A stretch of DNA of 58,684 nucleotides from Thermoleophilaceae bacterium (GCA_045805345.1 JBJMLK010000141.1:1-58684), one strand, 5' to 3'; shown: positions 11,098 through 47,236, counted from the first letter of the stretch. Notes: generated by a model from the sequence alone, not told the origin. Numbers and translations are program-made.

Positions 11098-11125
11098 CGC
11101 GCCAGCATAGGCTCGCAGCGGGGGT

Positions 11126-11131
11126 TACGAT
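11126..11131 (+). promoter_or_regulatory. -10-like hexamer TACGAT 6 nt upstream of the SDR start codon (leaderless-type arrangement)
   Basis: A TANNNT hexamer at 11126..11131 is followed by 6 nt and then GTG at 11138. No Shine-Dalgarno sequence lies between them. Confidence 0.3.
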
Positions 11132-11137
11132 CCAGCC

Positions 11138-28366: not shown

Positions 28367-28367
<1 letters not shown>

Positions 28368-29623
28368 TGATGCAGGGCCTCGCCGACAGCGCGCTCGCAA
28401 CCCCGCTCGACGCCGCGGCCGTCGCGCGCGAGTTCCCGATCCTGCGCCGCGAGTTCGCCGGCAAGCCGCTCACCTACCTCGACAGCGCCAACACCGCGCA
28501 GAAGCCGCGCGCGGTGCTAGACGCGATCCACTCGGCGCTCGCCGAGCACAACGCCAACATCCACCGGGCGGTCTACCCGCTGGCGCACGAGTCGACCGAG
28601 GCGTTCGAGGGCGCCCGGCGGCGCATCGCCGCGCACCTCGGCGCCGCGTACGAGGAGGTCGTGTTCACGAAGAACGCCACCGAGGCGATCAACCTCGTGG
28701 CGTACTCGTGGGGCCGTACGAACGTGGGCCCGGGCGACGTGGTGCTGCTCACGGAGATGGAGCACCACTCGAACATCGTGCCGTGGCAGCTGCTAGCGCA
28801 GGAGCGCGGCGCCGAGCTGCGCTACGTGCCGGTCACGCCCGACGGCAAGCTCGACATGTCGGCGCTCGACCGCGCGCTCGCGCGCTCGCCCAAGCTGCTC
28901 TGCCTCGTGCACGTGTCGAACGTGCTCGGCACGATCAACCCCGTCGAGGAGATCGTGGCCCGCGCGCACCGCATGGGCACGCGCGTGCTCGTCGACGGCG
29001 CCCAGGCGGCGCCGCACCTCCAGCTCGACCTCCCCGCCATCGGCGCCGACTTCTACGTCTTCACCGGCCACAAGTGCTACGGGCCGACCGGCATCGGCGT
29101 GCTGCGCGCGAAGCGCGAGCTGCTCGAGGCGATGCCCCCGTTCCTGGCCGGCGGGGACATGATCAGCCGCGTGGACTGGCAGGAGTCCACCTGGGCCGAG
29201 GTGCCGCTCAAGTTCGAGGCGGGCACGTCGCCGTTCGTCGAGGCGCAGGGCCTGGCCACGGCGCTCGACTGGCTCGACGGGCTCGGCATGGAGGCGGTCG
29301 GCGCCCACGAGGCCGAGGTCACGGAGTACGCGCTCGGGCGGCTCGCGGAGCTGCCGGGGCTGACGATCCACGGCCCGGCCGTCGACGAGCCGCGCGGAAC
29401 CGCGATCTCGTTCGCCGTCGACGGCGTCCACCCGCACGACGTGGCGGAGATCCTCGGCCGGGAGGGCGTCTGCGTCCGAGCCGGACACCATTGCGCCCAG
29501 CCGCTCATGCGCAAGCTCGGCGTGCCGGCCACCTCGCGGGCGAGCATCGGCGTGCACAACACCACCGCCGACGTGGACCGCCTGATCGAGGGCCTCGACG
29601 AGGTCCGGAGGGTGTTCGCGTGA
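28367..29623 (+). CDS. sufS: Cysteine desulfurase SufS (class II aminotransferase V)
   Basis: Blocks HSNIVPWQ, FTGHKCYGPTGIG (PLP Lys) and RAGHHCAQP (active-site Cys). The start is GTG 28367 or ATG 28370. Confidence 0.95.
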
Positions 29624-30018
29624 TGGACGCGCTGTATCGCGAGCAGATCCTCGACCATTACAAGCACCCGCACAACTTCGGGGAGCTGGACGACGCCGAC
29701 CTCGAGTTCGAGGACAACAACCCGCTGTGCGGGGACGAGCTGCGCGTTCAGCTGAGGACCGGCGGCGACGGCCGGATCGAGGACGTCCGCTTCTCCGGCC
29801 AGGGCTGCGCGATCAGCCAGGCGTCGGCGTCGATGGTCTCCGACGAGATCAAGGGCATGACGCCGCAGGAGCTGCTCAAGCTCGACCGCGAGTTCGTGCT
29901 GGAGCTGCTCGGCATCGACATCTCGGCCACGCGGATGAAGTGCGCTCTGCTCTCGCTGAAGGTCCTCAAGAGCGCGAGCCTCGGCGCCTCGGCGCGGTGG
30001 GAGGACGGCGACCGATGA
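29623..30018 (+). CDS. sufU: SUF-type Fe-S scaffold / sulfur acceptor SufU (NifU N-terminal family)
   Basis: Blocks ILDHYKHPHNFG, NPLCGD, GQGCAIS and RMKCALL. The ATG overlaps the sufS stop (TGATG). Confidence 0.9.
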   Translation: MDALYREQILDHYKHPHNFGELDDADLEFEDNNPLCGDELRVQLRTGGDGRIEDVRFSGQGCAISQASASMVSDEIKGMTPQELLKLDREFVLELLGIDISATRMKCALLSLKVLKSASLGASARWEDGDR

Positions 30019-30353
30019 CCGCTACGCTCAGCTCGATGGCCGAGATCATCGACGTCTGCCCCGTATCCGAGCTCCCGCCCGGCGCCATGCGCATGGTCGA
30101 GTGGGAGGACCTCGAGATCGGGATCTTCAACTGCAAGGGCGAGATCCTCGCGATCGAGGACCGCTGCTCGCACGACAACGGCACGCTCGTCGAGGGCGAG
30201 CTCGACCAGGACGACTGCACCGTCGAGTGCCCGCGTCACGGCTCGCGCTTCGACCTGCACACGGGCAAGCCGTTGACCCTGCCGGCCTACGTTCCGGTCG
30301 AGACGTTCCCGGTCACGATCGAGGACGACACCATCAAGCTGGAGGTCGAGTAA
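30015..30353 (+). CDS. Rieske [2Fe-2S] ferredoxin-like protein embedded in the suf operon
   Basis: CSHDNG (CxH) and CPRHGS (CxxH) Rieske ligand motifs. ATGA overlap with sufU. Confidence 0.9.
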   Translation: MTATLSSMAEIIDVCPVSELPPGAMRMVEWEDLEIGIFNCKGEILAIEDRCSHDNGTLVEGELDQDDCTVECPRHGSRFDLHTGKPLTLPAYVPVETFPVTIEDDTIKLEVE

Positions 30354-31766
30354 ATGGCCACTCCCGATCTGACCACGATCAACTCCGACTACAAGGAGCG
30401 CTTCGGCTTCCACGACGCCGAGAACTACCTGTACAAGGCGCCGAAGGGGCTGAACCGCGAGATCGTCGAGAAGATCTCCGAGTTCAAGTCGGAGCCGCAG
30501 TGGATGCGCGACTTCCGGCTCAAGGCGCTCGACCACTTCCTCGCGCGTCCGATGCCCACCTGGGGCAGCCCCAAGCTCGCCGAGGTCGACTTCGACAACA
30601 TCCACTATTTCGTGCGCGCGTCCGAGCGCGCCGAGCGCTCGTGGGACGAGGTCCCGGACGACGTGAAGAAGACGTTCGACCGGCTCGGCATCCCCGAGGC
30701 GGAGCGCAAGTTCCTGTCCGGCGTGGGGGCGCAGTACGAGTCGGAGGTCGTGTACCACCAGGTGCGCGAGGACCTCGAGAAGCAGGGCGTGCAGTTCCTC
30801 GACATGGACTCCGCCCTGCGCGAGCACGAGGACCTCGTGCGCGAGTACTTCGCCACGATCATCCCGGCCAACGACAACAAGCTGGCCGCGCTCAACTCTG
30901 CCGTCTGGTCGGGCGGGTCGTTCGTCTACGTGCCGCCGGGGGTGCACGTGGAGATGCCTCTGCAGGCCTACATCCGGATCAACACCGAGAACATGGGCCA
31001 GTTCGAACGCACGTTGATCATCGCCGACGAGGGCTCGTACGTGCACTACGTGGAGGGCTGCACGGCGCCCACGTACTCGTCGGACTCGCTGCACTCCGCG
31101 GTGGTCGAGCTGATCGCCAAGCCAGGCGCGCGGATCCGCTACACGACCGTGCAGAACTGGTCGCAGAACGTCTTCAACCTGGTCACCAAGCGTGCGGTCG
31201 CCGAGGCCGGCGCGACCGTCGAGTGGGTCGACTGCAACCTCGGCTCGAAGCTCACGATGAAGTACCCGTCCGTCTACCTCATGGGCGAGGAGGCGCACGG
31301 CGAGATCCTCTCGATCGCCTTCGCGGGCAAGGGCCAGCACCAGGACGCCGGCGGCAAGATCATCCACGCGGCGCCGCGCACCACGTCGAACATCTTCGCC
31401 AAGTCGATCTCCAAGGACGGCGGGCGGTCGAGCTACCGCGGGCTGCTCGAGGTCGCAAAGGGCGCCACCGAGGCGCGCTCGAAGGTCGTGTGCGACGCCC
31501 TGCTGCTCGACGAGGACTCGCGCTCCGACACCTACCCGACGATCCGGATCGGCGAGGACGACGTGGACGTGGGCCACGAGGCCACGGTCTCGAAGATCGG
31601 CGAGGAGCAGCTCTTCTACCTCCAGTCGCACGGCATCCCGGAGGAGGAGGCGTCGAAGCTGATCGTGAACGGCTTCATCGAGCCGATCACGAAGGAGCTG
31701 CCGATGGAGTACGCCGTCGAGATGAACCGGCTGATCGAGCTCCAGATGGAGGGCTCGATTGGCTAG
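30354..31766 (+). CDS. sufB: Fe-S cluster assembly scaffold SufB
   Basis: 470 aa. Blocks [48 protein letters not shown] and FYLQSHGI. No intein-sized insertion is present. Confidence 0.95.
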
Positions 31767-32907
31767 CGCGGCAGCCGCCGCTGCGCCTCCCCTCCCCGAG
31801 TTCAAAGGCAGGCCCGGCTGGGAGTTCACCGACCTGACGGGCCTCGACCTCGACGCCTACGAGCCGGCGCCGCCGGCCGCGGGCGGCGAGCCCGTCCTGG
31901 CCGTGCCGCGCGAGAGCGCCGCGGGCCTGGGCGACGCGATCGTCTGCACGCTCGCCGAGGCCGTCGAGCGGCACGCCGAGCTGGTCGAGCCGCATCTCGG
32001 CACCGTCGTCGCCGCCGACGACCCGTTCGTGGCGCGCAACGCCTGGCAGGAGGGACTGTTCGTGTACGTGCCGCGCGGCGTCCGGCTCGATGAGCCGATC
32101 GCGCGCGACGCCGTGACCGGCGAGGCCGGCACCGCGCTGAGCCACCGCACGCTGATCGTGCTCGAGGAGGGCGCCGAGGCGGAGGTCTGGGAGCAGTACC
32201 TCAGCTCCGAGGAGGGCGAGACGCTGTTCAACGTGGTGACCGAGATCGTGGTCGGTCCGAACGCCACGCTCCGCTACGTGGCCGCCCAGGGCCTGTCCGA
32301 GAAGAGCTGGGTCTTCGGCACCCAGCGCGCGGTGGTCGACCGCGACGGCGCCCTCGACTGGGTCGCGCTCGGCTTCGGGTCGGCGCGCGGGAAGGTGCGG
32401 ATGGAGACGCAGCTGGCCGGCGCTGGCGCCGGCGCCAAGGTGACCGGCGCGTACGCGGGGCGCGGGCGCCAGCACCTGGACTTCGACACCACCCAGGAGC
32501 ACGCCGCCCCCAACACCACCTCCGACCTCGCCTTCCGCGGCGTGCTCGGCGGCCGCTCGACGGCCGTCTGGCGCGGGATGATCAAGGTCGACCCGGGCGC
32601 GCAGCAGACCGACGCCTTCCAGGAGAGCCGCAACCTGCTGCTGTCCAAGCGCGCGCACGCCGACGCGATCCCGGGCCTCGAGATCGAGGCGAACGACGTG
32701 CGCTGCACGCACGCCGCGGCGATCGCGCAGATCGACCGCGAGCAGCTCTTCTACCTGATGTCGCGCGGCCTGCGGCGCGAGCAGGCCACTCGGCTCGTGA
32801 TCGACGGCTTCCTGCAGGCGCTCGTGGAGCGCTTCGCCGCGGGCCCGCTGCGCGAGTCGGTGGCCGGGGCGCTCGAGCGGCGGCTCGAGGCCGTGCTCGG
32901 CTCCTAG
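31759..32907 (+). CDS. sufD: Fe-S cluster assembly protein SufD
   Basis: SufB/D-family C-terminal blocks ([40 protein letters not shown]). TTG start overlapping the sufB end. Confidence 0.9.
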
Positions 32908-32998: not shown

Positions 32999-33643
32999 AT
33001 GCGGGGACGGTGCTTGTTGGGAGTCGCGGCGTGCGCCGCGGGAATCGCGCTGGGGGCGACCGCCGCTCAGGCGGCGGACGTGCGCGGCGTGGAGGTCCGG
33101 CCGGGTACGCCGGGGCTGGAGCTCACGGCCGCGGCGGGCGAGCGTAACGACGTCAGGGTCGTGCAGAACCTGCACCCGTCGACGTCCTCGCCGGGCTCCC
33201 TCGACACGATCACCGTCGCCGACAGGGGGGCGACCCTCACGACCGGCGGCGACCACCCGTGCCGGCTGCTGTCGGCGCACAAGGCGCGCTGCGTGTCGTT
33301 CGCGGCCTCGTGGGCGACGGTCGAGTTGTCGCTCGGCGACGGCCCCGACCGCGTTCGGATGCCGTCGCTCTCCGGCTATCCCGCGACGACCATCTACTCG
33401 AACGGCGGCGACGGGAATCGCTTCTACGTGCGCGGCACGAACACCTGGGTCTGGGGCGCCGGCACCGGCGACCTCGTGCGCTTCCGGCCGCCCGGCGGCG
33501 GCGGCGTGATCGCCGGCGGCTCGCCGCGGCTGTGGCTCGTGGACGGCGCCGCGGAGTCCGTCGAGTGCAGGACGGCGGGCGACCCGCGGATCTTCGCCGA
33601 CCCGCTCGACACCGTCTCCTACTGCGGCAGCGCCTCCCCCTAG
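32999..33643 (+). CDS. Small secreted hypothetical protein (paralog A of 42745..43461)
   Basis: Signal peptide MRGRCLLGVAACAAGIALGATAAQA. Blocks shared with the paralog: LLSAHKARC, DGPDR, GNRF, VRF(R/K)PPGGGGVI(A/T)GGSP, LVDGA and DPLD. Confidence 0.7.
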   Translation: MRGRCLLGVAACAAGIALGATAAQAADVRGVEVRPGTPGLELTAAAGERNDVRVVQNLHPSTSSPGSLDTITVADRGATLTTGGDHPCRLLSAHKARCVSFAASWATVELSLGDGPDRVRMPSLSGYPATTIYSNGGDGNRFYVRGTNTWVWGAGTGDLVRFRPPGGGGVIAGGSPRLWLVDGAAESVECRTAGDPRIFADPLDTVSYCGSASP

Positions 33644-34578
33644 GGGGCGACGCCCTCCACGAACCGCCTCAGGCCGAGGTTGAACGGCACGGCCTTGCGC
33701 CCGGGCACGTGACCCGCGCCCGGGATCACCTGGAGCTCGCCGCGCAGGTCCTCGGCGAGCGCCGCCGCCCAGTGCGGCATGGCCACCTGCTCCAGCTCGC
33801 CGACCATCACCAGGGACGGCAGCCGGAGCTCGCGCACCAGAGGCCGCAGCTCCGTGTACGACTGCGCGAGCCGCTCGGCCGAGGACTCGTAGTCCGCCAT
33901 GTCCGACGCGTCGAGGGTCGCGAGCACCACCTCCGGCGTGGTCTCGAGCGACATCCCGAGGCCGAACTCGACCGACCGCGCGCTGTGCGGCTCGTTCGCG
34001 CAGATGCGCGTCCACATGTCCGCGAAGTCGCGGTAGTGGTCGCGGATGAAGTAGCGGTTCTGCCCGCGGCAGTCGTCGTAACTCTCGAGCTCCTCGTTGT
34101 ACGGGATCGTCGACCACTCGGGAAACGGCGCGCTCTTCGCGTACACCGTGGGGCCGATGAACACGGCCGCCTGCACGCGCTCGGGCGAGTGCGCGCACAC
34201 CATCGCGTTCCACGCGGTGCCGGCCGACAGCGACACGCTCACGACCCGGTCGGTGCCCGTCGCGTCGAGCACGGCCAGCGCGTCGAACGCGAACTCGTGC
34301 GCCATGTAGGCGGCGGCCTCGAGCGGCCGGTCCGAGCGGCCGTTCCCGCGGCCGTCGAACACGACCACGCGGAAGTGACGCGCCAGGTACGCGATCTGCG
34401 CGCGCCAGATGCGCGAATGGACGATCGACCAGGTCGGCAGGAGCAGGACCGTGGTCGTGCCGTGGCCGTAGACCTCGTAGAAGGTGCGCACGCCGTCGCG
34501 CTCCACGAAGCCGGAGTCGCGCGGCAGGATCGCCCGCGAGCCCTGGTACTCGGTGGTGCCGGCCTCGAGGGCGATCAC
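33640..34578 (-). CDS. Alpha/beta hydrolase fold protein (tandem paralog 1)
   Basis: Blocks WRAQIAYLARHFRVVVFDGRGNGRSDRP and a nucleophile-elbow-like VSLSAG. GTG start overlapping the upstream stop (GTGA). Confidence 0.85.
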   Translation of the reverse strand: MIALEAGTTEYQGSRAILPRDSGFVERDGVRTFYEVYGHGTTTVLLLPTWSIVHSRIWRAQIAYLARHFRVVVFDGRGNGRSDRPLEAAAYMAHEFAFDALAVLDATGTDRVVSVSLSAGTAWNAMVCAHSPERVQAAVFIGPTVYAKSAPFPEWSTIPYNEELESYDDCRGQNRYFIRDHYRDFADMWTRICANEPHSARSVEFGLGMSLETTPEVVLATLDASDMADYESSAERLAQSYTELRPLVRELRLPSLVMVGELEQVAMPHWAAALAEDLRGELQVIPGAGHVPGRKAVPFNLGLRRFVEGVAP

Positions 34579-35522
34579 GCGACCCGCTCCCTTCCGTGCG
34601 CCGCGCCGGCGCGCACCGACTCGAGGAACTCGCGCAGCACGACGTTCATCGCCACCGGTTGGCGCGAGCCCACGAGCGGCCCGCGGCCCTCGAACACGTG
34701 CAGCCGCCCGCCGGTGGCCTCAGCCAGCGGGCCGCTCGTGTGCTTGGGGTACATCGCCTGGCCGCCGTTCTGGGTGACGAGCACCGGGCAGCGCACCCGC
34801 CGCGCCTCCTCGAGGGCCTCGTCGCGGTCGTACATGTCGAACCCGACGGTGGCGCGGATCAACGTCTCGGCGTCGGTCTGCAGCGCCTGCGAGACGATCT
34901 CCTCGATCTGCCGCACCGAGTGCGGGTTGGGGCTCACCCAGCGCGCGAACCACTCGGCGAACCCGCGGTAGTCCTCGCGCCAGTAGTGCGGGTTCATCTT
35001 GCTCGTGCCGTCGTAGCGCTCCCTGCCGCCGGCCGAGAACCAGTCCACGAACGCACGCTCGGCCCACAGCTGCGGCGTGATGAACACGCTCGCGCGCACG
35101 CGCTCCGGGTGGTTGGCGGCGAGGTCGAGCGCGAGCGCGGCCCGAGGGCTGCCGGACACGATCATCGCGCCCTCGGTTCCGGTCGCGTCGAGCACCGCGA
35201 GCGTGTCGGCCACGTGCGCCGCGCGCGAGTACGCCGCGGCGTGGGACGGGCGGTCCGAGCGGCCGTTGCCGCGCGGGTCGAAGACCACCACCCGGAAGTG
35301 GCGGGCCAGGTACGGCACCTGCGCTCGCCACGTCCGCGAGTCGTTGAGCGCCCACGGCGGCAGGAAGCAGACCACGTCGCCGGACTCGCCGAACGCCTCC
35401 CAGTACACGCGCACGCCGGCCTCGTCCTCCACGTAGCCCGAGTCGTCGGGCCGGCGGGCGCGGGACGACGGCAGCTTGGCCAGCACGTCGTCCGGGATCC
35501 GGTCGGGCACGGCGACGGTCAC
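34575..35522 (-). CDS. Alpha/beta hydrolase fold protein (tandem paralog 2)
   Basis: Block WRAQVPYLARHFRVVVFDPRGNGRSDRP. The GTG start at 35522 was located by residue counting (315 aa) and overlaps the glycosyltransferase stop. Confidence 0.85.
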   Translation of the reverse strand: MTVAVPDRIPDDVLAKLPSSRARRPDDSGYVEDEAGVRVYWEAFGESGDVVCFLPPWALNDSRTWRAQVPYLARHFRVVVFDPRGNGRSDRPSHAAAYSRAAHVADTLAVLDATGTEGAMIVSGSPRAALALDLAANHPERVRASVFITPQLWAERAFVDWFSAGGRERYDGTSKMNPHYWREDYRGFAEWFARWVSPNPHSVRQIEEIVSQALQTDAETLIRATVGFDMYDRDEALEEARRVRCPVLVTQNGGQAMYPKHTSGPLAEATGGRLHVFEGRGPLVGSRQPVAMNVVLREFLESVRAGAAHGRERVA

Positions 35523-36724
35523 AGCATCTCCGCCAGTCGCTCTGCGGCGCGCCGGGCGCCGTCGGTCTCCACGTCCCTGTAGGCGACCTCGCGCCCGATC
35601 TCCGCCGCGATCGCGTCCGCGATCAGCTCCGGCGGCGAGTCGTCGTACTCCATCCGCCGCCCGGCGCCGTAGCGGTCGAGGCGCTGAGGCACGTGGATGC
35701 GCTGCTCGAAGTGGTGCTTGAGGGGGAAGTAGAGGAACGGGCGCTTGTTGGCGGTCAGCTCCATCGCGGTGGTCAGGCCGCCCTGCACGACGGCGAGGTC
35801 GCACGCGGCCAGGTGTCGGTAGAGGTTGTGCACGTAGGCGCGCACCTCGAGCCCGTCGCTCTGGGGCAGCGAAGCGGGGTCGATCCGCGGCCCCGCCACC
35901 ACGATCATGCGCAGCTCGGGCACGCGCTCCTTCGCCAGCGGATGGGCGTCGATCACGCGCCTCAGGAGGCTCTCGCCCACGCCCGAGCCGCCGACGCTCA
36001 CCAGGCAGACCTTCTCCTCGGGGGCGTAGCCCAGCTCGGCGCGCAGAGCCTCGCGGTCGGCCAAGTCCGACGGGTCGAAGCCCGACACGTAGCCCGGGAA
36101 CTCGAAGTGCTCGCGCGTCCAGTCGGCGATCATCGGCAGCCGCTCGCCCAGCGGGGCTGGCACGATGTCCTCCTCGTTGCCCACGAACAGCGAGCGGTCG
36201 CGCAGCCTCGGGAGCTCGGCGATGTGGTCGATCATCTGCTCGTTGTAGTCGTGCGCGAGGAAGCGCTCGTAGTCGTCGGCGTCGTCCACCGGCAGGAGGC
36301 CGACGAAGTCCGTGAGCCACGCGTAGTTGGCGTTCTTCAGCTCCGGGTTCTCGTGCAGGTAGTAGTCGATCTCCCAGCCCTCGTCGGCGATCCAGAGGTC
36401 GTAGCGCTCGTCGGCCACCACGTCGTGGAAGAGCATGAAGTTCGCGATCAGGATCTCGTCCATCCGCCGCCACGCGTGGAAGCAGTGGAGGTCGTGCTCG
36501 GAGGACTCCGACTCGAAGTGACCGGACTCGCTGGCCAGGTGCTTGCTGGCCGGGTGGATGCGCTCGCCCTCGGCCTCGAGCACGCGCGTGACGGGGTCCT
36601 GGGCCAGCCAGTCGATCTCGACGCCGGGCGATAGCGCGCGGAGCTCGCGCGCTATCGCCACGTCGCGTTGAGCGTGTCCGAGCCCGATCGGGGACGAGAT
36701 GAACAGTGCACGCTTGCGGCTCAT
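35519..36724 (-). CDS. GT-B fold glycosyltransferase (GT1/GT28-like)
   Basis: N-terminal ALFISSPIGLGHAQRDVAIAREL and C-terminal LAACDLAVVQGGLTTAMELTANKRPFLYFP blocks are typical of MGT/MurG-like GT-B enzymes. Confidence 0.8.
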   Translation of the reverse strand: MSRKRALFISSPIGLGHAQRDVAIARELRALSPGVEIDWLAQDPVTRVLEAEGERIHPASKHLASESGHFESESSEHDLHCFHAWRRMDEILIANFMLFHDVVADERYDLWIADEGWEIDYYLHENPELKNANYAWLTDFVGLLPVDDADDYERFLAHDYNEQMIDHIAELPRLRDRSLFVGNEEDIVPAPLGERLPMIADWTREHFEFPGYVSGFDPSDLADREALRAELGYAPEEKVCLVSVGGSGVGESLLRRVIDAHPLAKERVPELRMIVVAGPRIDPASLPQSDGLEVRAYVHNLYRHLAACDLAVVQGGLTTAMELTANKRPFLYFPLKHHFEQRIHVPQRLDRYGAGRRMEYDDSPPELIADAIAAEIGREVAYRDVETDGARRAAERLAEML

Positions 36725-36751: not shown

Positions 36752-37825
36752 TTACGCCCTCAGCTCGTAGAGGACCGAGAACGGGTCCTCGATCGGGAGC
36801 TTCCGGAACTTCGAGAAGCCGGCCGCGTACGCCAGCTCGCGCGCCTTCTCCTCGCCCATGCAGGCGCCGATGCCGGCGCCGTCGTGCGCCAGCGAGGTGG
36901 TCATGCAGTACAGCGTGCTCACGTTGTAGAGGAACTTGCCGAGCGGGTGGCGGTTCTCCTCCACGTCGCCCGACGCGTTCATCTCGAGCATCAGGTAGCT
37001 GCCGCCCTCGCGCAGCGACCTGCGGATCGACGTCATCAGCCCGACCGGGTCGACCGAGTCGTGGACCACGTCGAACGTCGACACGAAGTCGAAGCGGTCC
37101 TCGGGCAGGTCGCCGCCGTCCACGACCTCGAACGTCGTGCGGTCGGCCACGCCCTCGGCGGCCGCGTTCGCGCGCGCCCGCTCGACCGATCCCGCGTGCA
37201 CGTCGTAGCCGGACACGCGCGCCTGCGGGAACGCCTTGGCGAGCGTGATCGCCGCCAGGCCGCCGCCGCAGCCCACGTCGAGCGCCGTGCCGCCGGCCTC
37301 GAGCTTGGCCTGCGCGTCGGTCATCGCCGGCACCCACTCCTGCACGAGGTGGTGCTTGTACCAGGGCGCGGTGCCGCGCTCGATCCCCTCGTACATGTCC
37401 GGCAGGTACTCGTCCTGCGTCACGCCGCCGCCGCTCCTGAACGCCTCCGCCACCTTCGGCGCGACGGTCACGGTCGGGACGATCATCTGGAGGAACCCGC
37501 CGGTGAAGAACGGGAAGTCCTCGTCCGCCAGCGGCAGCGCGTGCTCGACCGGCAGCCGGTAGGTGCCCGTGGCCGGGTCGTGCTCGACGTACTCGGCGGT
37601 CGACAGCGAGCCGAGCCACTCGCGCAGGTAGCGCTCGTTCAACCCGGTCCGGTCCGCCAGCTCGCCGGGCGTGACGGGTTCGCCGTCGGCGAGTGCCTTG
37701 AAGATGCCGAGCCGGTCGCCGATGTACAGCAGCCCGCCGCGCATCGCCGTGCCGACGTCGAGCACCACCCGCTCGACGAACGCCTCGACCTTGGCCTGGT
37801 CCAGCTCAGGGGTTGTGGCAGTCAT
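36752..37825 (-). CDS. Class I SAM-dependent methyltransferase
   Basis: An internal ATG at 37825 (MTATTPELDQ...) has a GGAGG 7 nt upstream. SAM motif I is ALDVGCGGGLAA. Confidence 0.9.
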   Translation of the reverse strand: MTATTPELDQAKVEAFVERVVLDVGTAMRGGLLYIGDRLGIFKALADGEPVTPGELADRTGLNERYLREWLGSLSTAEYVEHDPATGTYRLPVEHALPLADEDFPFFTGGFLQMIVPTVTVAPKVAEAFRSGGGVTQDEYLPDMYEGIERGTAPWYKHHLVQEWVPAMTDAQAKLEAGGTALDVGCGGGLAAITLAKAFPQARVSGYDVHAGSVERARANAAAEGVADRTTFEVVDGGDLPEDRFDFVSTFDVVHDSVDPVGLMTSIRRSLREGGSYLMLEMNASGDVEENRHPLGKFLYNVSTLYCMTTSLAHDGAGIGACMGEEKARELAYAAGFSKFRKLPIEDPFSVLYELRA

Positions 37826-37889
37826 TCCACGGCCTCCTCTGTTGGTTGCCCCACTCCGCCACCGTCCCAGGGCGCCGTTGCGCCAGCGC

Positions 37890-37918
37890 GAATCGACCGC
37901 GAAACGCCCGTGAAACCC
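37890..37918 (+). promoter_or_regulatory. Three direct heptamers GAATCGA / GAAACGC / GAAACCC with exact 11-bp phasing (candidate SARP binding site)
   Basis: The heptamers start at 37890, 37901 and 37912. They lie in the 139-nt divergent region between the methyltransferase operon and the SARP-family regulator gene. Confidence 0.45.
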
Positions 37919-37951
37919 TGCAACAGGGGGCCAGGCCACCTGATGCACGCG

Positions 37952-37957
37952 TAGTCT
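37952..37957 (+). promoter_or_regulatory. -10-like hexamer TAGTCT 7 nt upstream of the regulator ATG (leaderless-type arrangement)
   Basis: TANNNT at 37952..37957 with the ATG at 37965 and no Shine-Dalgarno sequence. Confidence 0.35.
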
Positions 37958-37964
37958 TCGGCCC

Positions 37965-40900
37965 ATGCTCCGGGTGCGGGTGCTGGGAGAGCTGGCGCTC
38001 GATCTGGACGGGCGCGTGCTCGAGCCGCCGGCGAGCCGCCGGGCGCGCTCCCTCCTCGGCCTTCTGGCGGTGGACCGCAGGGCGCACCAGCGCTCGCAGC
38101 TCGCCGCCCGCTTCTGGCCCGACGTGCTCGACGAGAGCGCGCGCACGAGCCTGCGCAGCGCGCTGTCGTCGCTGCGCCGGTCGCTCGGGCCGGACGCCGA
38201 CCGCTACCTGCTCGCCGGGCGCGACAGCGTCGCGCTGGCCGGGCCGGACGACGTGGCCACCGACCTCGCCGAGTTCGAGACGCTGCTGGCGGACGGCCGC
38301 GCGGAGGAGGCGCTCGAGCTCTGTCGCGGCGACCTGCTGGACGGCCTCGACGACGACTGGGTCTTCGCGGCGCGCGACGACCACCGCGACCGCGTGGCCG
38401 ATGCGCTCGCCACGCTGGCGGCCGGCGCCGAGGAGAGCGGCGACATGGACGCCGCGGTCACCTTCAGCCGCCGCCGCGTGGTGCTCGACCCGCTCGCCGA
38501 GGAGGCCCAGCGCGAGCTGATCCGCCGGTTGGCCGCCGCCGGCGACCGCCCGGCCGCGATCACCGCCTACCGGCGCCTGCAGGACCGCCTGCGGAGCGAG
38601 CTCGGCATCGCGCCTTCGGCGCGCACGCGCGAGCTGGCGGAGTCGCTGCGCGAGGAGGCGGGCGAGCCGGTGGCGGCGCACGCACCGGTCGCCCCCGCCG
38701 AGGCGCAGGCGCCGGCTGCGCCCGCGCCGCCCGCGACGGCCTCGCCGCGGCCGTCGGGCACGGTCACGCTCCTCTTCACCGACCAGGTCAGCTCGACCGA
38801 GACGCTCCAGCGTCTCGGCGACGACGAGGCCGAGCGGCTGCGCCGTACGCACTTCGGGCTGCTGCGCGAGGTGGCCGGCGCGCACGGCGGCCAGGAGGTG
38901 AAGAACCTGGGCGACGGGCTGATGGTGGCGTTCACGAGCGCGGTCGACGCGGTGGCGGCCGCGATCGGGATCCAGCAGGCCGTGCACCGCCACGCGGAGC
39001 GGGCCGGCGACGACCGCCTGGGCGTGCGGGTGGGGCTGAACGTGGGCGAGCCGATCGTCGACGAGGACGACTACTTCGGCACGCCGGTGGTCGTGGCCAA
39101 GCGCCTCTGCGACGCCGCGGCGAGCGGTCAGATCCTGGCGTCGGACGTTGTGCGCGCGCTGGTCGGCACGCGCGGCGGGTTCGAGTTCAGGTCCGTCGGA
39201 GCGATGCCCCTGAAGGGGATCGCCGACTCCGTGCCGGCGTGCGAGGTCGGCTGGGCGCCGACCACCGAGCAGCGGATTCCGCTTCCGCCGGCGGTCGAGA
39301 CGGCCGATGCCGGCGAGCTGGTGGGCCGCAGTGGCGCGCTGGCCGAGCTCGAGCGGCACTGGCTCGACGCCCGCGCCGGCAGCCCGCGCGTGGTGGCCCT
39401 GGCCGGCGACCCCGGCATCGGCAAGACGCGGCTGGCCGCCGAGCTCTGCCGGCGCGCGCACGCGGACGGCGCCGCTGTGCTCGCGGGGCGCTGCTACGAG
39501 GAGACGCTCGTGCCGTACCAGCCGTTCGTGGAGGCGCTGCGGCACTACGTGGCGGGCGCTCCGCCAGCGGAGCTGACGGTCCAGCTCGCGCCGCGGCGGC
39601 GCGAGCTGGCCGCGCTCGTGCCGGACCTCGCCGACGGCCGCGAGCCGGCGCCGCGCGCGTCCGCGGACGCGGAGCAGGAGCGCTTTCGCCTGCTCGAGGC
39701 CGCCGCGTCGCTGATCCTCGAGGCGGCGGCCGCGCGGCCGCTGATCCTGCTGCTCGACGACCTGCACTGGGCGGACGACGCGACGCTCCTGCTGCTGCGG
39801 CATCTGGCGCGCTCGTTCCAGTCCCGCGAGGGGGCGGAGCTGATGGTCGTGGTCACGTTCCGCGACACGGAGCTGGCGGCACGCGGGGAGCTGGTGGCGG
39901 CGCTCGCCGAGCTCAGGCGCGCGCGGGTGCTGCACGAGCTGCAGCTCGGCGGTCTCGCCGGCGACGCGGTGGCCGAGCTGATCGCAGCGCAGTCGGGCGC
40001 CGCCGCGGAGGAGTCGTTCGCGCGCCGCGTGGCCGAGCGCACCGACGGCAACCCGTTCTTTATCGAGGAGCTGCTGCGGCACGTGCCCGACGCGCGCGCG
40101 GCCGAGCTCGACGAGCTGGGGCTCCCGGAGAGCGTCAAGGACCTGCTGCTCCGGCGGCTCGAGCGGCTGGGCGAGGACTCCCGCGGGGCGCTCGCGATCG
40201 CCGCGGTGGCCGGCGCCGAGTTCGACCTCGCGGTGGTGGCGCGCGTGCTCGGCGAGCCGGACGACTCTCTGCTCGACCCGTTCGACGCCGCGCTCGCGGC
40301 CCACGTGCTCGCCGAGGACCCGGCCACCGTCGGCCGCTACCGCTTCGCGCACCCGCTGATCCGCGAGACGATCTACGGCGACCTGTCGGCCACGCGCCGC
40401 GCGCTCGTGCACCGCCGGATAGGCGAGGCGCTCGAGGAGCTGCACCCGGACGCCCTCGCCGAGCACGCCGGGGCGCTGGCCCGCCACTTCCACGCGGGCG
40501 GCGACGCCGCCAAGGCGTACGACTACCACCGCCAGGCGGCCGCCGCCGCCGCGCGCGTCTATGCGCTCGAGACCGCGCTCGCGCACCTCGACGGCGCGAT
40601 CGCCGCGGCGGGACTCCTGAACGTGCGGCCCGAGGACGACGCGGGCCTGCGCCGCCTCTTCGCCGAGCGCGGCTGGACGCGCCGCTTCGTGAGCGGCAAC
40701 GCGGTCGCCGACAGCGTGCACGACTACGAGGTCGCACTGGCGGCGGCGCGCGCGGCCGGCGACCGCGAGCTCGAGATGGAGGTGCTGAACGCGCTCGGCA
40801 CGCTCTCGCACATCGCCGACAGCGAGCGCGCGATCCGCCATCACGGCGAGTCGCTCGCGCTGGCCGAGGAGCTGGGGGACGAGGCCGGCCAGGTCGCAGC

Positions 40901-42017
40901 GCTGAACAGGCTGTCGCTCGTGCACGCGAACCAGCTCGACCTCGTGCGAGCTCAGGAGCTCGGCGAGCGCGCGCTGGAGCTGGCCAGGGGGAGCGGCGAC
41001 GAGGTGGCCGTCGCGCGCGCCCTCGACGGGCTCAAGTTCGTGGCGCTGATGCTCGGCGACACCGAGCGGCTCGAGGACGTCACCTCCCAGCTTGCCACCG
41101 TCCAGCGCCGCCGCGAGGACATCTGGTTCCTGCTGTGGACGCTGTCCGAGTCGGCGTTCACGCCGATCGTGCAGGCCGACTTCGCCGAGGCCGACCGGCG
41201 GGTGGGCGAGGCGCTGGCCCTGGCGCGGCGCATGGGCGACACGATGGCCGAGACGCTGATCCTGGCGATCGCCTGCTCGCTCGAGCGCTCGCGCGGGCGT
41301 TACTCGGAGGCACTTCGCGTGGGCGAGCGGGCGGTGGCGCTGACCCACGACGCCACCGCCGACGTGTGGCTCGGGTGGACGGGTGCCGCGCACGCGCGAT
41401 GCCTGGCGGACCTGGGGCTGTGGGAGGAGGCCTGCTCGCTGCTCGAGGACGGGCTGTCGGCCGCCGACCGGATCAACGCGCGCGGTCAGGCGTTCGGGTG
41501 CGTGGGCGACCTGGCGTGGGCGCGGCTCCAGACCGGCGACGTCGCGGGAGCGCGGGCTGCCGCCGAGCGCTGGGACGACGCCGCGGCGCAGGTCCACGCG
41601 CCGAGCGGACAGGCCTGCCTCTACTTCCGCACGAGCTACACGGGACGCGCGCGCGTGGCGCTCGCGCTCGGCGACCGCGAGCGGGCGGAGTCGATCCTGC
41701 GCGCTCTGCTCGTGCCGGTCGAGCGCTCCGGCGTACGCGACGCCGCCGCCGATGCCCATGCCGCCCTGGCGGCCTGCGCGCTCGACCGCGGCGACTCGGC
41801 GGAGGCCCAGCGCCTGCTCGCCCGCGGACTCGAGCTGCTCGGCCCGGACGGGTTCCCGGCCGAGCGGCTGCGACTCGTGCTCGCGCTGGCGGCGCTGGAG
41901 CCGGGCGGCGAGCACGAGACGGCCGCCGACGCCCTCGTCGAGGCGATCGCGACGTCGACGGAGAGCCCCGAGCTGGCCGCCGCCTTCCGGGCGCGGGCGC
42001 GCCTCAGCCCTGGCTAG
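37965..42017 (+). CDS. Multidomain regulator: SARP (wHTH + BTAD) - class III nucleotidyl cyclase - STAND/AAA ATPase - TPR
   Basis: The N-terminus (VLGELALDLDG...RSALSSLRRSL, DLAEFETLLADG, YRRLQDRLRSELGIAPS) is SARP/BTAD. The blocks LLFTDQVSST, VKNLGDGLMVAF, VRVGLNVGEP and GTPVVVAKRL are a class III cyclase. GDPGIGKT is Walker A and LILLLDDLHWAD is Walker B. A long TPR-like helical C-terminus follows. Confidence 0.9.
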   Translation: MLRVRVLGELALDLDGRVLEPPASRRARSLLGLLAVDRRAHQRSQLAARFWPDVLDESARTSLRSALSSLRRSLGPDADRYLLAGRDSVALAGPDDVATDLAEFETLLADGRAEEALELCRGDLLDGLDDDWVFAARDDHRDRVADALATLAAGAEESGDMDAAVTFSRRRVVLDPLAEEAQRELIRRLAAAGDRPAAITAYRRLQDRLRSELGIAPSARTRELAESLREEAGEPVAAHAPVAPAEAQAPAAPAPPATASPRPSGTVTLLFTDQVSSTETLQRLGDDEAERLRRTHFGLLREVAGAHGGQEVKNLGDGLMVAFTSAVDAVAAAIGIQQAVHRHAERAGDDRLGVRVGLNVGEPIVDEDDYFGTPVVVAKRLCDAAASGQILASDVVRALVGTRGGFEFRSVGAMPLKGIADSVPACEVGWAPTTEQRIPLPPAVETADAGELVGRSGALAELERHWLDARAGSPRVVALAGDPGIGKTRLAAELCRRAHADGAAVLAGRCYEETLVPYQPFVEALRHYVAGAPPAELTVQLAPRRRELAALVPDLADGREPAPRASADAEQERFRLLEAAASLILEAAAARPLILLLDDLHWADDATLLLLRHLARSFQSREGAELMVVVTFRDTELAARGELVAALAELRRARVLHELQLGGLAGDAVAELIAAQSGAAAEESFARRVAERTDGNPFFIEELLRHVPDARAAELDELGLPESVKDLLLRRLERLGEDSRGALAIAAVAGAEFDLAVVARVLGEPDDSLLDPFDAALAAHVLAEDPATVGRYRFAHPLIRETIYGDLSATRRALVHRRIGEALEELHPDALAEHAGALARHFHAGGDAAKAYDYHRQAAAAAARVYALETALAHLDGAIAAAGLLNVRPEDDAGLRRLFAERGWTRRFVSGNAVADSVHDYEVALAAARAAGDRELEMEVLNALGTLSHIADSERAIRHHGESLALAEELGDEAGQVAALNRLSLVHANQLDLVRAQELGERALELARGSGDEVAVARALDGLKFVALMLGDTERLEDVTSQLATVQRRREDIWFLLWTLSESAFTPIVQADFAEADRRVGEALALARRMGDTMAETLILAIACSLERSRGRYSEALRVGERAVALTHDATADVWLGWTGAAHARCLADLGLWEEACSLLEDGLSAADRINARGQAFGCVGDLAWARLQTGDVAGARAAAERWDDAAAQVHAPSGQACLYFRTSYTGRARVALALGDRERAESILRALLVPVERSGVRDAAADAHAALAACALDRGDSAEAQRLLARGLELLGPDGFPAERLRLVLALAALEPGGEHETAADALVEAIATSTESPELAAAFRARARLSPG

Positions 42018-42720
42018 GCTCGCGCCACACGACCTCGTGGCGGAGCAGGACCGGGTCGTCGAGCGGGCGCTGGAAGGCGCGCTCGAGCGCGCCGAGCTGG
42101 CTGCGGTAGGTGCGCACGACTCGCAGCTTGCGCTCGAACTCCGCCTCGGTGAGCGGGTGCGGCTCCGGCGCGAGCCCGTCGAGCTGCGGCGCGCACGCGG
42201 GCCACGCCTCGCCGCCGTCGACGCTCGCGTGTGGGAGGTCCGCGTAGAGGACCGTCTCGTAGCCGTCCTCGCGCAGCGCGCGGCCCACCTCTCGAACGGC
42301 CGCGTGGTCGGGGTGCGGCTCGGTGGTGGACGCGGGAAAGCGGCGCTCCCCCCCTCCGCCCGCGAACGCCGCCGGCACGTACACGAGCGCCGGCCGCGGC
42401 ACGACCTCGCGCACGGTCGCGAGCAGCGCGGCGGCGTCCGCGCCGTCCTCGCGGTACTGGGCGTCGAGGAAGTCGAGGTTCACCGCCTGGCGCCCGACGG
42501 CGGCGAGCGCGGCGCGATCCTCCTCGATGCGCGCCCTCACGGCGCGGGCGGAATCGCCGCTGCCGCTCGCGCGGTCCCACCAGCCGGTGACAGTGCCCGG
42601 CGGCGGGACCCCGGCGAACACGTTCACCACCCGCACGTCGCCCGGCCCCTCGAGCACGCGCCAGCACGACAGCACGGCGTCGTCGAGGTGCGGTGACAGG
42701 ATCACGATCGCCGGGTTCAT
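42004..42720 (-). CDS. PIG-L/LmbE-family N-acetylglucosaminyl deacetylase
   Basis: Motifs ILSPHLDDAVLS (PHxDD) and EPHPDH. The preferred start is ATG 42720 (GGGAAGG upstream), with an alternative ATG at 42729. It overlaps the regulator 3' end by 14 nt in convergent orientation. Confidence 0.85.
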   Translation of the reverse strand: MNPAIVILSPHLDDAVLSCWRVLEGPGDVRVVNVFAGVPPPGTVTGWWDRASGSGDSARAVRARIEEDRAALAAVGRQAVNLDFLDAQYREDGADAAALLATVREVVPRPALVYVPAAFAGGGGERRFPASTTEPHPDHAAVREVGRALREDGYETVLYADLPHASVDGGEAWPACAPQLDGLAPEPHPLTEAEFERKLRVVRTYRSQLGALERAFQRPLDDPVLLRHEVVWREPSQG

Positions 42721-42744
42721 CGATTCCATCCTTCCCCGATCGCG

Positions 42745-43461
42745 TTGAAGGAGCGTGAAAGCCGCGCGAAAGTGGTTCACTTCCACTGCGCGACAACCCA
42801 GGCAGGGGGCACCACGGGGAGAAAGCGGTTCGCGGCAGCGATGGCGGTATGCGTCGCCGGAGCGCTGTTCGCAGCGACGGCCGCGCAGGGGGCGATCGTC
42901 GAGGTCGGGGAGATCAGGCCTGGCGTTCCGGCGCTCTTCTTCACCGCCAACGCCGGCGAGCCCAACGACGTGGCCATTCGCCCCAAGGGCCGTATTTCGA
43001 CCTCGACCGACGACCTCGGGCTCTCTTACCACGTGATCACGGTGGTCGACGAGGGCTCGACGCTCACCACGGGCGGGTCCTACCCGTGCGTGCTGCTGTC
43101 GGCCCACAAGGCGCGCTGCACGTCGTTCGCCAACGGCTTCTCCTGGATCCAGTTCGATTTGCGCGACGGACCCGACCGCCTGAGCATGCCCGCCCGCGTC
43201 GGCTACCCAACGACCTTGATCTACAGCGACGGCGGGGGCAACCGCTTCACGGTGCGGGGCCCGTCGACCGAGGTGTATGGCGCCTTCACGGGCGACGTCG
43301 TCCGCTTCAAGCCGCCCGGCGGCGGTGGCGTGATCACGGGCGGCTCGCCGACGCTCAAGCTCGTCGACGGCGCGCCGGAGTACGTCGATTGCCGCCCGCC
43401 CGGCACCCCGCGGGTGTTCAGCGACCCGCTCGACTCCTTCAGCTCCTACTGCTCGGTCTAG
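42745..43461 (+). CDS. Small secreted hypothetical protein (paralog B of 32999..33643)
   Basis: It shares several identical blocks with paralog A. The signal-like segment is RKRFAAAMAVCVAGALFAATAAQGA. The start is uncertain: TTG 42745, GTG 42772 or ATG 42841. Confidence 0.7.
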   Translation: MKERESRAKVVHFHCATTQAGGTTGRKRFAAAMAVCVAGALFAATAAQGAIVEVGEIRPGVPALFFTANAGEPNDVAIRPKGRISTSTDDLGLSYHVITVVDEGSTLTTGGSYPCVLLSAHKARCTSFANGFSWIQFDLRDGPDRLSMPARVGYPTTLIYSDGGGNRFTVRGPSTEVYGAFTGDVVRFKPPGGGGVITGGSPTLKLVDGAPEYVDCRPPGTPRVFSDPLDSFSSYCSV

Positions 43462-45415: not shown

Positions 45416-47236
45416 GTGGCAGCGCTGGTCGCGCCGAGCGGCAACGTCGAGTGGCTGTGCCTGCCGCAGTTCGACTCGCCGAGCGTGCTCGCGGCCATCC
45501 TCGACCGCGACGCGGGCCGCTTCCGGCTCGGGCCGTCGGACGTCCAGGTGCCGGCCGCGCGCCGCTACCTACCGGGGAGCATGGTGCTCGAGACCACCTG
45601 GAAGACCCGCACCGGCTGGCTCGTGGTCCGCGACGCCCTCGCCGTGGGGCCCTGGCACCACGTGGGCGAGCGAGCACACCGCCAGAGCCGGCCGCCGTCC
45701 GACTGGGAGGCCGACCACGTGCTCGTGCGCACCGCCCGCTGCGCGCAGGGGATCGTGGAGCTCGCGCTGGAGTGCGAGCCGGCCTTCGACTACGCCCGCC
45801 AGCGCGCGAGCTGGGACTACGCGGCAGGCGACTACCACCACGCGATCGCGACGGGTGACGACCCCGAGCCGGCGCTCCAGCTCGACAGCGACCTGAATAT
45901 CGGCTTCGAGGGACCGCGCGCCACGGCGCGGACCACCCTGCGCCAGGGCGACACGGTGTTCGTCTCCCTCTCGTGGTCGGAGCACGGCGGGCCGAAGACC
46001 TTTCACGACGCCTTCGAGCGGATGGACCAGACCAACGCCTACTGGCGCGAGTGGCTGGCGCACGGCGACTTCCCCGACCACCCCTGGCGTGCGCAGCTCG
46101 AGCGCTCCGCGCTCACCCTGCGGGGCCTGGCGTACGCGCCGAGCGGCGCCATTGTCGCGGCGCCCACCACCTCGCTGCCGCGCGTGACCGGGCACGAGCG
46201 CAACTACGACTACCGCTTCAACTTCGTGCGCGACGCGGCCTTCGCGCTCTGGAACGGCTACAGCCTGGGCTTCGAGTGGGAGGCCGACGACCACTTCTAC
46301 TTCCTCGCTGAGCTGGCCCGGGACGGCGACGCGTACCTTCAGAACATCTACGGGGTCAGCGGCGAGACCGACCTCGAGGAGACGACCCTCGAGCACCTGT
46401 CGGGCTACGACAACTCGCGGCCGGTCCGCGTCGGCAACGCCGCGGCCCACTACCAGCAGCACGACATCTGGGGTGCCCTGCTCGACGCGGCCTACCTGCA
46501 CGCCAAGTCGCGCGACAAGCTGCCGGAGCGGATCTGGCCCATGGTGAAGGCACAGGCCGAGCGGGCGGCCGACTGCTGGCGCGAGCCCGACCGCGGGATC
46601 TGGGCCGCGCGCGGCGAGCCGCGTCACTACGTGTCGTCGAAGTTCATGTGCTGGGTCGCCGTCGACCGCGGGGCGCGCCTGGCCGAGCTGCGCGACGAGC
46701 CCGACCTCGCCGAGAAGTGGGACAAGGTCGCCGCCGAGATCAAAGAGGACGTCTGCACGAACGGGGTCACCGAGCGCGGCGTGTTCCGCCAGCACTACGA
46801 GACCGATGCGTTGGACGCGTCGCTGCTCCTGATGCCGCTCGTCCGCTTCCTGCCGCCGGACGACGAGCGCGTGCGCAAGACCGTCGAGGCGATCGCCGAG
46901 GAGCTGGTCGAGGATGGGCTCGTGCTGCGGATGCGCCCCGACGAGGAGGACTTCGCGGTGGAGGGCGAGACGTTCACCGTGTGCTCGTTCTGGCTCGTCT
47001 CGGCGCTTGCCGAGATCGGCGAGGTCGAGCGCGCGCGCGAGATGTGCGAGCGGCTGCTCGCCCTGGCCAGCCCGCTCGGCCTCTACGCCGAGCACCTCGA
47101 CCCGGACTCGGGTCGCCACCTCGGCAACTTCCCGCACGCCTTCACGCACCTGGCGCTCGTCAACGCGGCGCTGCACGTGATCGCAGCCGAGGGCGAGGCC
47201 GTGGCCGACCCGCGGACCGACCGCGCGACGGCCTAG
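45416..47236 (+). CDS. Glycoside hydrolase family 15 (glucoamylase/trehalase-like); true 5' end unresolved
   Basis: Blocks ALVAPSGNVEWLCLPQFDSPSVLAAILD, PTTSLPR and a (alpha/alpha)6 C-terminal domain. The conserved N-terminal residues FPPIADFAFLSDGE lie in frame upstream of the first canonical start (GTG 45416). Confidence 0.85.
   Translation: MAALVAPSGNVEWLCLPQFDSPSVLAAILDRDAGRFRLGPSDVQVPAARRYLPGSMVLETTWKTRTGWLVVRDALAVGPWHHVGERAHRQSRPPSDWEADHVLVRTARCAQGIVELALECEPAFDYARQRASWDYAAGDYHHAIATGDDPEPALQLDSDLNIGFEGPRATARTTLRQGDTVFVSLSWSEHGGPKTFHDAFERMDQTNAYWREWLAHGDFPDHPWRAQLERSALTLRGLAYAPSGAIVAAPTTSLPRVTGHERNYDYRFNFVRDAAFALWNGYSLGFEWEADDHFYFLAELARDGDAYLQNIYGVSGETDLEETTLEHLSGYDNSRPVRVGNAAAHYQQHDIWGALLDAAYLHAKSRDKLPERIWPMVKAQAERAADCWREPDRGIWAARGEPRHYVSSKFMCWVAVDRGARLAELRDEPDLAEKWDKVAAEIKEDVCTNGVTERGVFRQHYETDALDASLLLMPLVRFLPPDDERVRKTVEAIAEELVEDGLVLRMRPDEEDFAVEGETFTVCSFWLVSALAEIGEVERAREMCERLLALASPLGLYAEHLDPDSGRHLGNFPHAFTHLALVNAALHVIAAEGEAVADPRTDRATA

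Follow-up and report, generated by a model that had tools for sequence, protein, structure and literature searches.

The subject of this analysis is a regulatory gene on the plus strand of a 58,684-nucleotide (nt) stretch of DNA from a Thermoleophilaceae bacterium (GCA_045805345.1 JBJMLK010000141.1:1-58684); the whole stretch, which has a G+C content of 70-77%, is referred to below as the window. The gene, at positions 37965-42017, encodes a protein of 1350 residues in which a SARP-type DNA-binding module, a class III nucleotidyl cyclase domain, a STAND ATPase and a TPR-like repeat region follow one another in a single polypeptide. A first-pass annotation, made from the sequence, had proposed this reading frame and this order of modules, and translation and Pfam searches agree with it on both: every motif that it cited is found in the translation, and of the domains that it had put forward for checking, BTAD, Guanylate_cyc and AAA_16 score above their curated cut-offs. 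The ATG start codon is backed by homolog alignments that begin at residue 1 and by a conserved -10 hexamer 6-8 nt upstream. The gene and its parts are laid out as follows.

37965-42017, plus strand: SARP-cyclase-STAND-TPR gene, ATG start, 1350 residues, without a Shine-Dalgarno sequence and predicted to be leaderless
37965-38264, plus strand: OmpR-type winged-helix DNA-binding domain, residues 1-100 (EmbR alignment, AlphaFold model)
38298-38651, plus strand: BTAD, residues 112-229 (PF03704, 56.7 bits)
38664-38747, plus strand: proline/alanine-rich linker, residues 234-261, predicted to be disordered (predicted local distance difference test, pLDDT, <50)
38751-39218, plus strand: class III cyclase homology domain, residues 263-418 (Pfam, model, catalytic residues)
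39315-39848, plus strand: AAA_16 STAND nucleotide-binding domain, residues 451-628 (Pfam, Walker motifs)
39405-39428, plus strand: Walker A motif GDPGIGKT, residues 481-488 (translation)
39741-39776, plus strand: Walker B motif LILLLDDLHWAD, residues 593-604 (translation)
40011-40382, plus strand: helical and winged-helix domains of the STAND module, residues ~683-806 (model)
40389-42005, plus strand: TPR-like helical-repeat sensor region, residues ~809-1347, ~30 helices (Pfam, model)

At its N-terminus the protein has the two parts by which the SARP (Streptomyces antibiotic regulatory protein) family is recognized, an OmpR-type winged helix and then a BTAD. The BTAD clears its cut-off of 22.1 bits, and a Trans_reg_C match to the winged helix is sub-threshold (16.9 vs 26.2 bits in Pfam). 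EmbR of Mycobacterium tuberculosis aligns with residues 5-228 (E=1.3e-6). In an AlphaFold model of residues 1-450, pLDDT exceeds 90 for residues 1-233, and this part superposes both on EmbR and on the SARP module of AfsR in a transcription initiation complex (8k60_J, template modelling (TM) score 0.76). The recognition region, W51-R71, is invariant across the family.

The second module is a class III cyclase domain whose active site is nearly, not entirely, canonical. Guanylate_cyc (PF00211) scores 46 bits on residues 263-418, or 51 bits if the domain is scanned alone, both above the cut-off, and the AlphaFold model gives the domain a pLDDT of 68-85. The closest solved relative is Ma1120 (PDB 4wp3 and 4wp8; E=1e-23, 34% identity, TM 0.90, root-mean-square deviation 2.1 Å), and a Foldseek search with the modelled domain also matches Rv1900c and Cya2. 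The metal-binding Asp pair is present as D273 (FTDQVSS) and D317 (KNLGDGLMV), and the Lys/Asp substrate pair as K313 (in the same KNLGDGLMV) and D369; the latter lies in DYFGTPVVVAKR, which also contains V376 and the transition-state Arg, R380. The canonical transition-state Asn should stand four residues before this Arg, at the position taken by V376, so the Asn-to-Val reading of the first-pass annotation is correct in the canonical alignment. An Asn two residues before V376 is absent too, as judged from the alignment to Ma1120 and the canonical motif. None of D273, K313, D317, D369 and R380 varies among 120 close homologs. Across 80 representatives of the cyclase domain (clustered at 50% identity and 29-96% identical within the domain), conservation reaches 95-97% at these five catalytic positions, the mean of the domain being 67%, and the equivalent of position 376 is Val in 76% and Asn in three, being otherwise reported as Val/Ile for the family. 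The motif D[YF]FG[TS][PA]VV[VI]A[KR]R is common to stand-alone cyclases, cyclase-STAND proteins and SARP-cyclase-STAND proteins.

Does the missing Asn imply that the domain is not an enzyme? The first-pass annotation suspected a weak cyclase or a nucleotide sensor, and the idea can be extended to a non-enzymatic domain that serves as a dimeriser or senses nucleotide, thereby positioning or gating the SARP domains. Several features are consistent with such a role: the canonical transition-state Asn is absent from the entire cyclase subfamily, a dimeriser would be useful where the domain lies, with the DNA-binding module on one side and the ATPase on the other, and its AlphaFold confidence is moderate. 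However, Ma1120 naturally has Ala (Ala164) at the Asn position and is an active adenylyl cyclase, and its activity is drastically lowered when Asn is put there (A164N) (PMC4215837). The lack of Asn is therefore a weak sign of a dead or weak enzyme, and with Val being subfamily-wide the suspicion of weakness loses most of its footing. The strong conservation of the other five catalytic residues argues for catalysis and would be unexpected in a purely structural module, and the same cyclase subfamily exists stand-alone and in cyclase-STAND proteins that have no DNA-binding domain. A non-enzymatic role thus seems unlikely to us, though it is far from negligible. We think instead that the SARP-fused cyclase is probably active and makes cyclic AMP (cAMP), and the Lys/Asp pair predicts ATP as its substrate.

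Behind the cyclase domain comes a STAND module with a long C-terminal repeat region. AAA_16 scores 103 bits over residues 451-628 and AAA_22 scores 27.5 bits, whereas NB-ARC reaches 14.5 bits against a cut-off of 23.5 and covers the P-loop only; the ATPase is of the AAA_16 (MalT/LAL) type, which makes the earlier label "AfsR-like" imprecise. GDPGIGKT and LLLDDLHWAD are invariant in the family. In a second AlphaFold model (residues 441-1350, pLDDT 89), an alpha/beta nucleotide-binding domain is followed by a helical/winged-helix segment and then by some 30 helices of the repeat region. Structurally the model comes closest to the STAND-TPR protein 6mfv (E=3e-13), Apaf-1 and CED-4 are also matched, and the repeat region matches the TPR structures of LGN and APC. 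In Pfam, TPR_MalT at residues 984-1297 is below its cut-off (35.7 vs 45 bits), TPR_12 matches too, and no GerE/LuxR helix-turn-helix (HTH) is matched anywhere in the protein. The TPR-like region, put at about 750 residues in the first-pass annotation, comes down to about 540 (residues ~809-1347), as residues ~683-806 belong to the STAND module. A SARP module, an AAA_16/AAA_22 ATPase and a TPR-like C-terminus without a LuxR HTH are the marks of the SARP-LAL, which is the nearest regulator class. By definition, SARP-LALs (PimR, SanG, FilR, PteR) share the ATP-binding part with "guanylate cyclases and LAL regulators" but have neither a cyclase signature nor a LuxR HTH; the protein described here departs from that definition in that a cyclase signature is present instead of absent.

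The same architecture recurs in many genomes. When the 120 best homologs were drawn from a collection of 5.8 billion proteins, 118 proved to be full length (1320-1434 residues), 52-79% identical and endowed with BTAD, Guanylate_cyc and AAA_16, which places the domain set far beyond chance; the named ones come from Solirubrobacteraceae or from Solirubrobacterales metagenome-assembled genomes (MAGs). GTDB genomes (one per species) hold 212 loci, 80 of which made up the set used for synteny, and Solirubrobacterales MAGs (Solirubrobacteraceae, Conexibacteraceae, Paraconexibacteraceae) account for nearly all of those 80. A wider view came from comparing residues 1-450 exhaustively, by HMMER, with 1.84 billion representatives at 50% identity: sorted by architecture, the top 150 matches include 19 SARP-cyclase-STAND proteins and 6 fragments, down to about 40% identity, together with 37 cyclase-STAND proteins and 50 SARP-STAND proteins, each of about 1100 residues. 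Precomputed Pfam annotation confirms the fused architecture in more distant members, including one from a Sporichthyaceae MAG. Paralogs can also share a locus: two SARP-cyclase-AAA_16 genes stand side by side and divergent in L081 (3096-10353), and in the Sporichthyaceae MAG locus L082 (1-8366) two lie about 4 kb apart, the second divergent from a methyltransferase gene. The cyclase had been described as inserted between the BTAD and the ATPase, which implies a direction of evolution; the ATPase-TPR body, being about 40% identical to SARP-STAND and cyclase-STAND relatives alike, favours neither order of fusion.

How far the fusion has been described is a separate matter. The first-pass annotation stated that known relatives carry only parts of the arrangement, which holds for characterised relatives; as an implication of rarity it fails, given the 118 homologs and 212 loci. 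Database pipelines label the fusion "class 3 adenylate cyclase / SARP family activator / TPR". When 440 Streptomyces genomes were surveyed by domain architecture, four SARP classes were distinguished, none of them with a cyclase. No paper on a SARP/BTAD-cyclase fusion was found in the literature searched, although a 2004 survey of actinobacterial cyclases, indexed under "BTAD", might mention it. The architecture might, as the first-pass annotation allowed, have turned out to be both common and already characterised; the fusion is indeed common within Solirubrobacterales, yet the literature searched yielded no characterised example.

Together with its neighbours, the regulator gene forms a small conserved cluster in Solirubrobacterales. 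The partner genes in the window are the following.

36752-37825, minus strand: Rv2258c/TnmJ-like winged-HTH S-adenosylmethionine (SAM)-methyltransferase, 357 residues; divergent from the regulator and first gene of its operon
35519-36724, minus strand: GT-B glycosyltransferase, 401 residues (Glyco_tran_28_C; weak MGT and MurG-like matches)
34575-35510, minus strand: alpha/beta hydrolase X, ~311 residues, in the minus-strand operon
33640-34578, minus strand: alpha/beta hydrolase Y, 312 residues; its start overlaps the stop of hydrolase X
42004-42720, minus strand: PIG-L/LmbE-family deacetylase, 238 residues (PF02585, 34.9 bits); convergent with the regulator gene

The hydrolases are found in 77 of the 80 loci, the PIG-L gene in 76, the glycosyltransferase in 74 (66-86% identity) and the methyltransferase in 52; in the main clade the last is 75-80% identical and directly divergent, as in the window. 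Genes beyond the cassette are not conserved across the 80 loci. The closest solved relative of the methyltransferase is TnmJ (E=7e-67), the glycosyltransferase has no sequence match in the PDB, and NCBIfam offers no specific function for any of the partner genes. The 3′ ends of the regulator and PIG-L genes overlap tail to tail by 14 nt (42004-42017).

The divergent intergenic region between the regulator and the methyltransferase operon, 139 bp in all, contains an array of four direct heptamers with an exact period of 11 nt, here called P1, flanked by elements that could serve as promoters on either side.

37876-37915, plus strand: P1 array, heptamers CGTTGCG (37876), CGCGAAT (37887), CGCGAAA (37898) and CGTGAAA (37909); putative SARP binding site
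37864-37869, minus strand: GTCCCA hexamer, conserved (read as TGGGAC on the minus strand), 6 nt to the left of P1; candidate leftward -10 of the methyltransferase operon
37916-37947, no strand assigned: 32-nt insert between the array and the regulator -10, with a hairpin CCCTG-caa-CAGGG at its start; missing in most orthologous loci
37952-37957, plus strand: regulator -10 hexamer TAGTCT, 7 nt before the ATG

Such an arrangement is not expected by chance: the pattern CGYGAA-N5-CGYGAA-N5-CGYGAA has one exact match in the window and one with two mismatches, against 0.06 expected. Of 71 orthologs (the window itself counted), 68 have the array upstream, with the consensus ctGTCCCAgGGCtc-CGTGGCG-ccac-CGCGAAG-cgcg-CGCGAAA-nnnn-CGTGAAT-ccgcg-TAGGCT-6 nt-ATG, and in the alignment it is the heptamers that hold information, the spacers being variable. 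On the regulator side, a TAnnnT hexamer lies 6-8 nt ahead of the start codon in 66 of 68 loci and 10 nt ahead in one more, a position that points to leaderless regulator transcripts with the repeats at the usual place of the -35 element. The spacing on this side is 17 nt in 34 loci; it ranges upwards from 15, with further classes at 27-30, 36-40, 48-49, 54 and 59 nt, and the window falls in the 49-nt class. In 34 loci the last heptamer is 5 nt from the regulator -10, without a -35 element. On the other side, about 58 of 68 loci have a GTCCCA-type hexamer at a fixed distance of 6 nt from the array, and this constancy suggests that, of the two targets, the divergent operon is under the greater constraint. 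A scan of 37700-38100 for promoters and terminators of the E. coli type found nothing, a result that tells little in this organism but agrees with promoters without a -35. Insertion or duplication seems to favour the junction between array and -10. About 10 other species have unrelated inserts of 19-42 nt at the point where the window has its 32-nt insert; several insert-bearing loci keep a partial "GAATcc" unit beside the -10, and one locus (L053) has three CGTGAAT copies 18-19 nt apart.

Similar arrays stand before other genes of the cluster. A weight matrix was built on the P1 sites and 2.8 megabases (Mb) were scanned with it, sites of 16 bits or more being counted as strong. In the 58-kb window it gives P1 40.5 bits, a second array, P2 (42741-42773), 19.9 bits, and the next best site 12.7 bits.

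42743-42771, plus strand: P2 array, CGTTGAA (42743), CGTGAAA (42754) and CGCGAAA (42765); 11-nt period, 22 nt from the PIG-L start codon

P2 is kept in about 70 loci, nearly always 21 nt from the PIG-L start codon, and its right flank is variable. To its right in the window lies a gene for a 206-residue signal-peptide protein (42841-43461, plus strand), which has no family match and is absent from related loci. P2 was also considered as the promoter of this rightward gene, and the idea was ruled out: the right flank and the gene are unconserved, whereas the distance to the PIG-L gene is fixed. A third class of arrays, P3, occurs in one subclade and stands before methyltransferase, CMD/AhpD-like and FAD/BBE oxidase genes. 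In the P3 loci (L031, L042, L048, L049, L056, L057, L061, L078) the arrays are about 2-4.5 kb upstream of the regulator; the genes that follow them have AGGAGG leaders, and besides the three kinds just named they include one for a small uncharacterised protein. The left flank of P3, ATCTCA at 6 nt from the array, matches that of P1.

Two lines of evidence tie the arrays to the regulator. First, nearly all sites of at least 16 bits in the 2.8 Mb sit at promoters of cluster genes, the exceptions being one minus-strand match in L001 and, in L072, a site ahead of a gene for an unrelated secreted protein. Second, the array follows the recognition helix. A distant paralog (P0138), 44% identical over residues 1-450, has an almost identical recognition helix. 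None of the partner genes lies near it, yet its gene is preceded by a 24.5-bit array and a TAAGCT hexamer 8 nt before the ATG; the next best site in its 16 kb scores 8.9 bits. Two paralogs with other recognition helices (P0207 and P0226) have no array, with best scores of -0.2 and -2.5 bits, and as a specificity control the matrix found no array in L082 or L083, whose recognition helices differ. In this small sample helix and array occur together, as would be expected of a SARP module that reads the heptamers. The arrays also have the format of SARP sites: heptameric direct repeats with an 11-bp period, at the promoters of a regulator and its neighbours. PimR binds three heptameric repeats, and in the AfsR precedent the direct repeats overlap the -35 and lie 8 nt from the -10, with the protomers side by side (PMC11301090).

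An 11-nt period is not peculiar to SARPs, and the arrays might instead be bound by some other OmpR-family regulator, for example a PhoP-like one, with the SARP-cyclase acting elsewhere. OmpR-family regulators generally use 11-bp direct repeats, and on the opposite strand the units ATTCACG and TTTCGCG resemble those of a PHO box; the reverse complement of CGTGAAT shares TTCAC with the core of the Streptomyces PHO box. Against this, the arrays are essentially confined to promoters around the regulator gene (in the 80 loci and in the 58-kb window), the array stays with the helix of P0138 in an unrelated neighbourhood and is gone where paralogs have other helices, and the recognition region is invariant. 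We therefore consider a foreign regulator improbable, and keep to the reading in which the SARP module itself recognizes the arrays.

From the architecture, the folds, the conserved motifs and the conservation and placement of the arrays, we infer DNA binding, oligomerisation and enzyme activity, and thereby a cluster-situated one-component STAND switch with two N-terminal outputs, a SARP and a class III adenylyl cyclase; this is the description of the protein towards which we lean. By analogy with MalT and AfsR, a ligand at the TPR region and ATP at AAA_16 would bring about oligomerisation, and the oligomer would place SARP modules next to one another along the 11-bp repeats of P1, P2 and P3. 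The bound modules would then control the regulator's own gene and the methyltransferase/glycosyltransferase/hydrolase/deacetylase cassette, which in some relatives would include the CMD-family and FAD/BBE enzymes. Since a class III cyclase needs a dimer interface to form its active sites, oligomerisation would switch on cAMP synthesis too: the same event would pair the cyclase domains into competent dimers and produce cAMP in parallel. That oligomerisation on the arrays has both effects, activating the tailoring-enzyme cassette and assembling active cyclase dimers, is a more tentative proposal, which we regard as possible and would not call likely.

Several observations sit uneasily with the switch as described. 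The heptamers point towards the regulator gene and away from the methyltransferase operon, the PIG-L gene and the subclade genes; with such opposite orientations the promoters cannot share one canonical SARP activation geometry. The leftward -10 candidates, TGGGAC and TAGTGA, match TAnnnT poorly, and the 32-nt insert may alter autoregulation in this window. Sequence from the window occurs only in DNA metagenome runs. As for the cyclase, its predicted activity is read from residues, and from these the canonical Asn is missing. The orientation of P1, opposite with respect to its two divergent promoters, together with a left geometry fixed at 6 nt and a regulator-side spacing of 15-59 nt, might also suggest a protein that is mainly a repressor or a dual regulator (autorepression, by an occupied array blocking the region next to the regulator's own -10, with activation of the divergent operon, or the reverse), but we consider this improbable: characterised SARPs are overwhelmingly activators, and the 34 loci with the last unit 5 nt from the regulator -10 and no -35 have the geometry of an activator site.

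The rest of the window holds genes of other kinds. Suf iron-sulfur genes occupy 28367-32907 (a SufS-like aminotransferase at 28367-29623, SufB at 30354-31766 and SufD at 31759-32907). Four other genes have no link to the regulator: they encode a GH5 cellulase-family protein (4791-6404), a penicillin-amidase family protein of 1187 residues (11086-14649), an S8 subtilase with FG-GAP repeats of 960 residues (21986-24868) and a GH15/trehalase-like protein (45416-47236).

If the proposed switch exists, the expression of a local cluster would be firmly wired to a cAMP signal that reaches the whole cell, or the cAMP would act back on the protein that makes it. A cluster regulator of the SARP type would then be coupled to the synthesis of a second messenger, in a way not described before, across an order of soil actinobacteria that is abundant but barely cultured: Solirubrobacterales are common in soil, and their regulation and small-molecule metabolism are almost uncharted. 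The family lends itself to two questions, namely whether a STAND switch drives transcription and cAMP synthesis together and whether class III cyclases without the "essential" Asn are generally active. Its predicted operators and target genes are unusually clear and are conserved in about 70 species.

SARP regulators of Streptomyces and STAND cyclases of mycobacteria have been studied apart, and here they are united in one polypeptide, so that each known system resembles a part of it. The SARP-LALs (PimR, SanG, FilR, PteR, PolR) are alike in their N-terminal SARP, AAA_16-type ATPase and TPR-like C-terminus, in the lack of a LuxR HTH, and in being cluster-situated with heptameric direct repeats; they differ in having no cyclase, a length of about 1100-1200 residues and Streptomyces hosts, whereas the protein described here has a cyclase between BTAD and ATPase and the heptamer CGYGAAn. 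AfsR of Streptomyces coelicolor likewise combines a SARP, a STAND ATPase and TPRs, with a similar SARP fold (the TM of 0.76 given above), and its SARP module binds direct repeats overlapping the -35 side by side and recruits RNA polymerase (PMC11301090). Unlike the present protein, AfsR has an NB-ARC-type ATPase and no cyclase, and is a global rather than a cluster-situated regulator. Among cyclases, Ma1120 of Mycobacterium avium shares the Lys/Asp pair and the absence of the transition-state Asn (Ala164 vs Val376), but it is a small cyclase protein without SARP, ATPase or TPR. In Rv0386, Rv1358 and Rv2488c a cyclase lies directly N-terminal to an AAA/STAND ATPase with TPRs, and a DNA-binding domain is present as well. 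In this type, however, the DNA-binding domain is a C-terminal LuxR-type HTH, where the protein described here has an N-terminal SARP, and the active sites diverge too: Rv0386 has a Gln/Asn substrate pair with the canonical Asn, in place of the Lys/Asp pair and Val found here.

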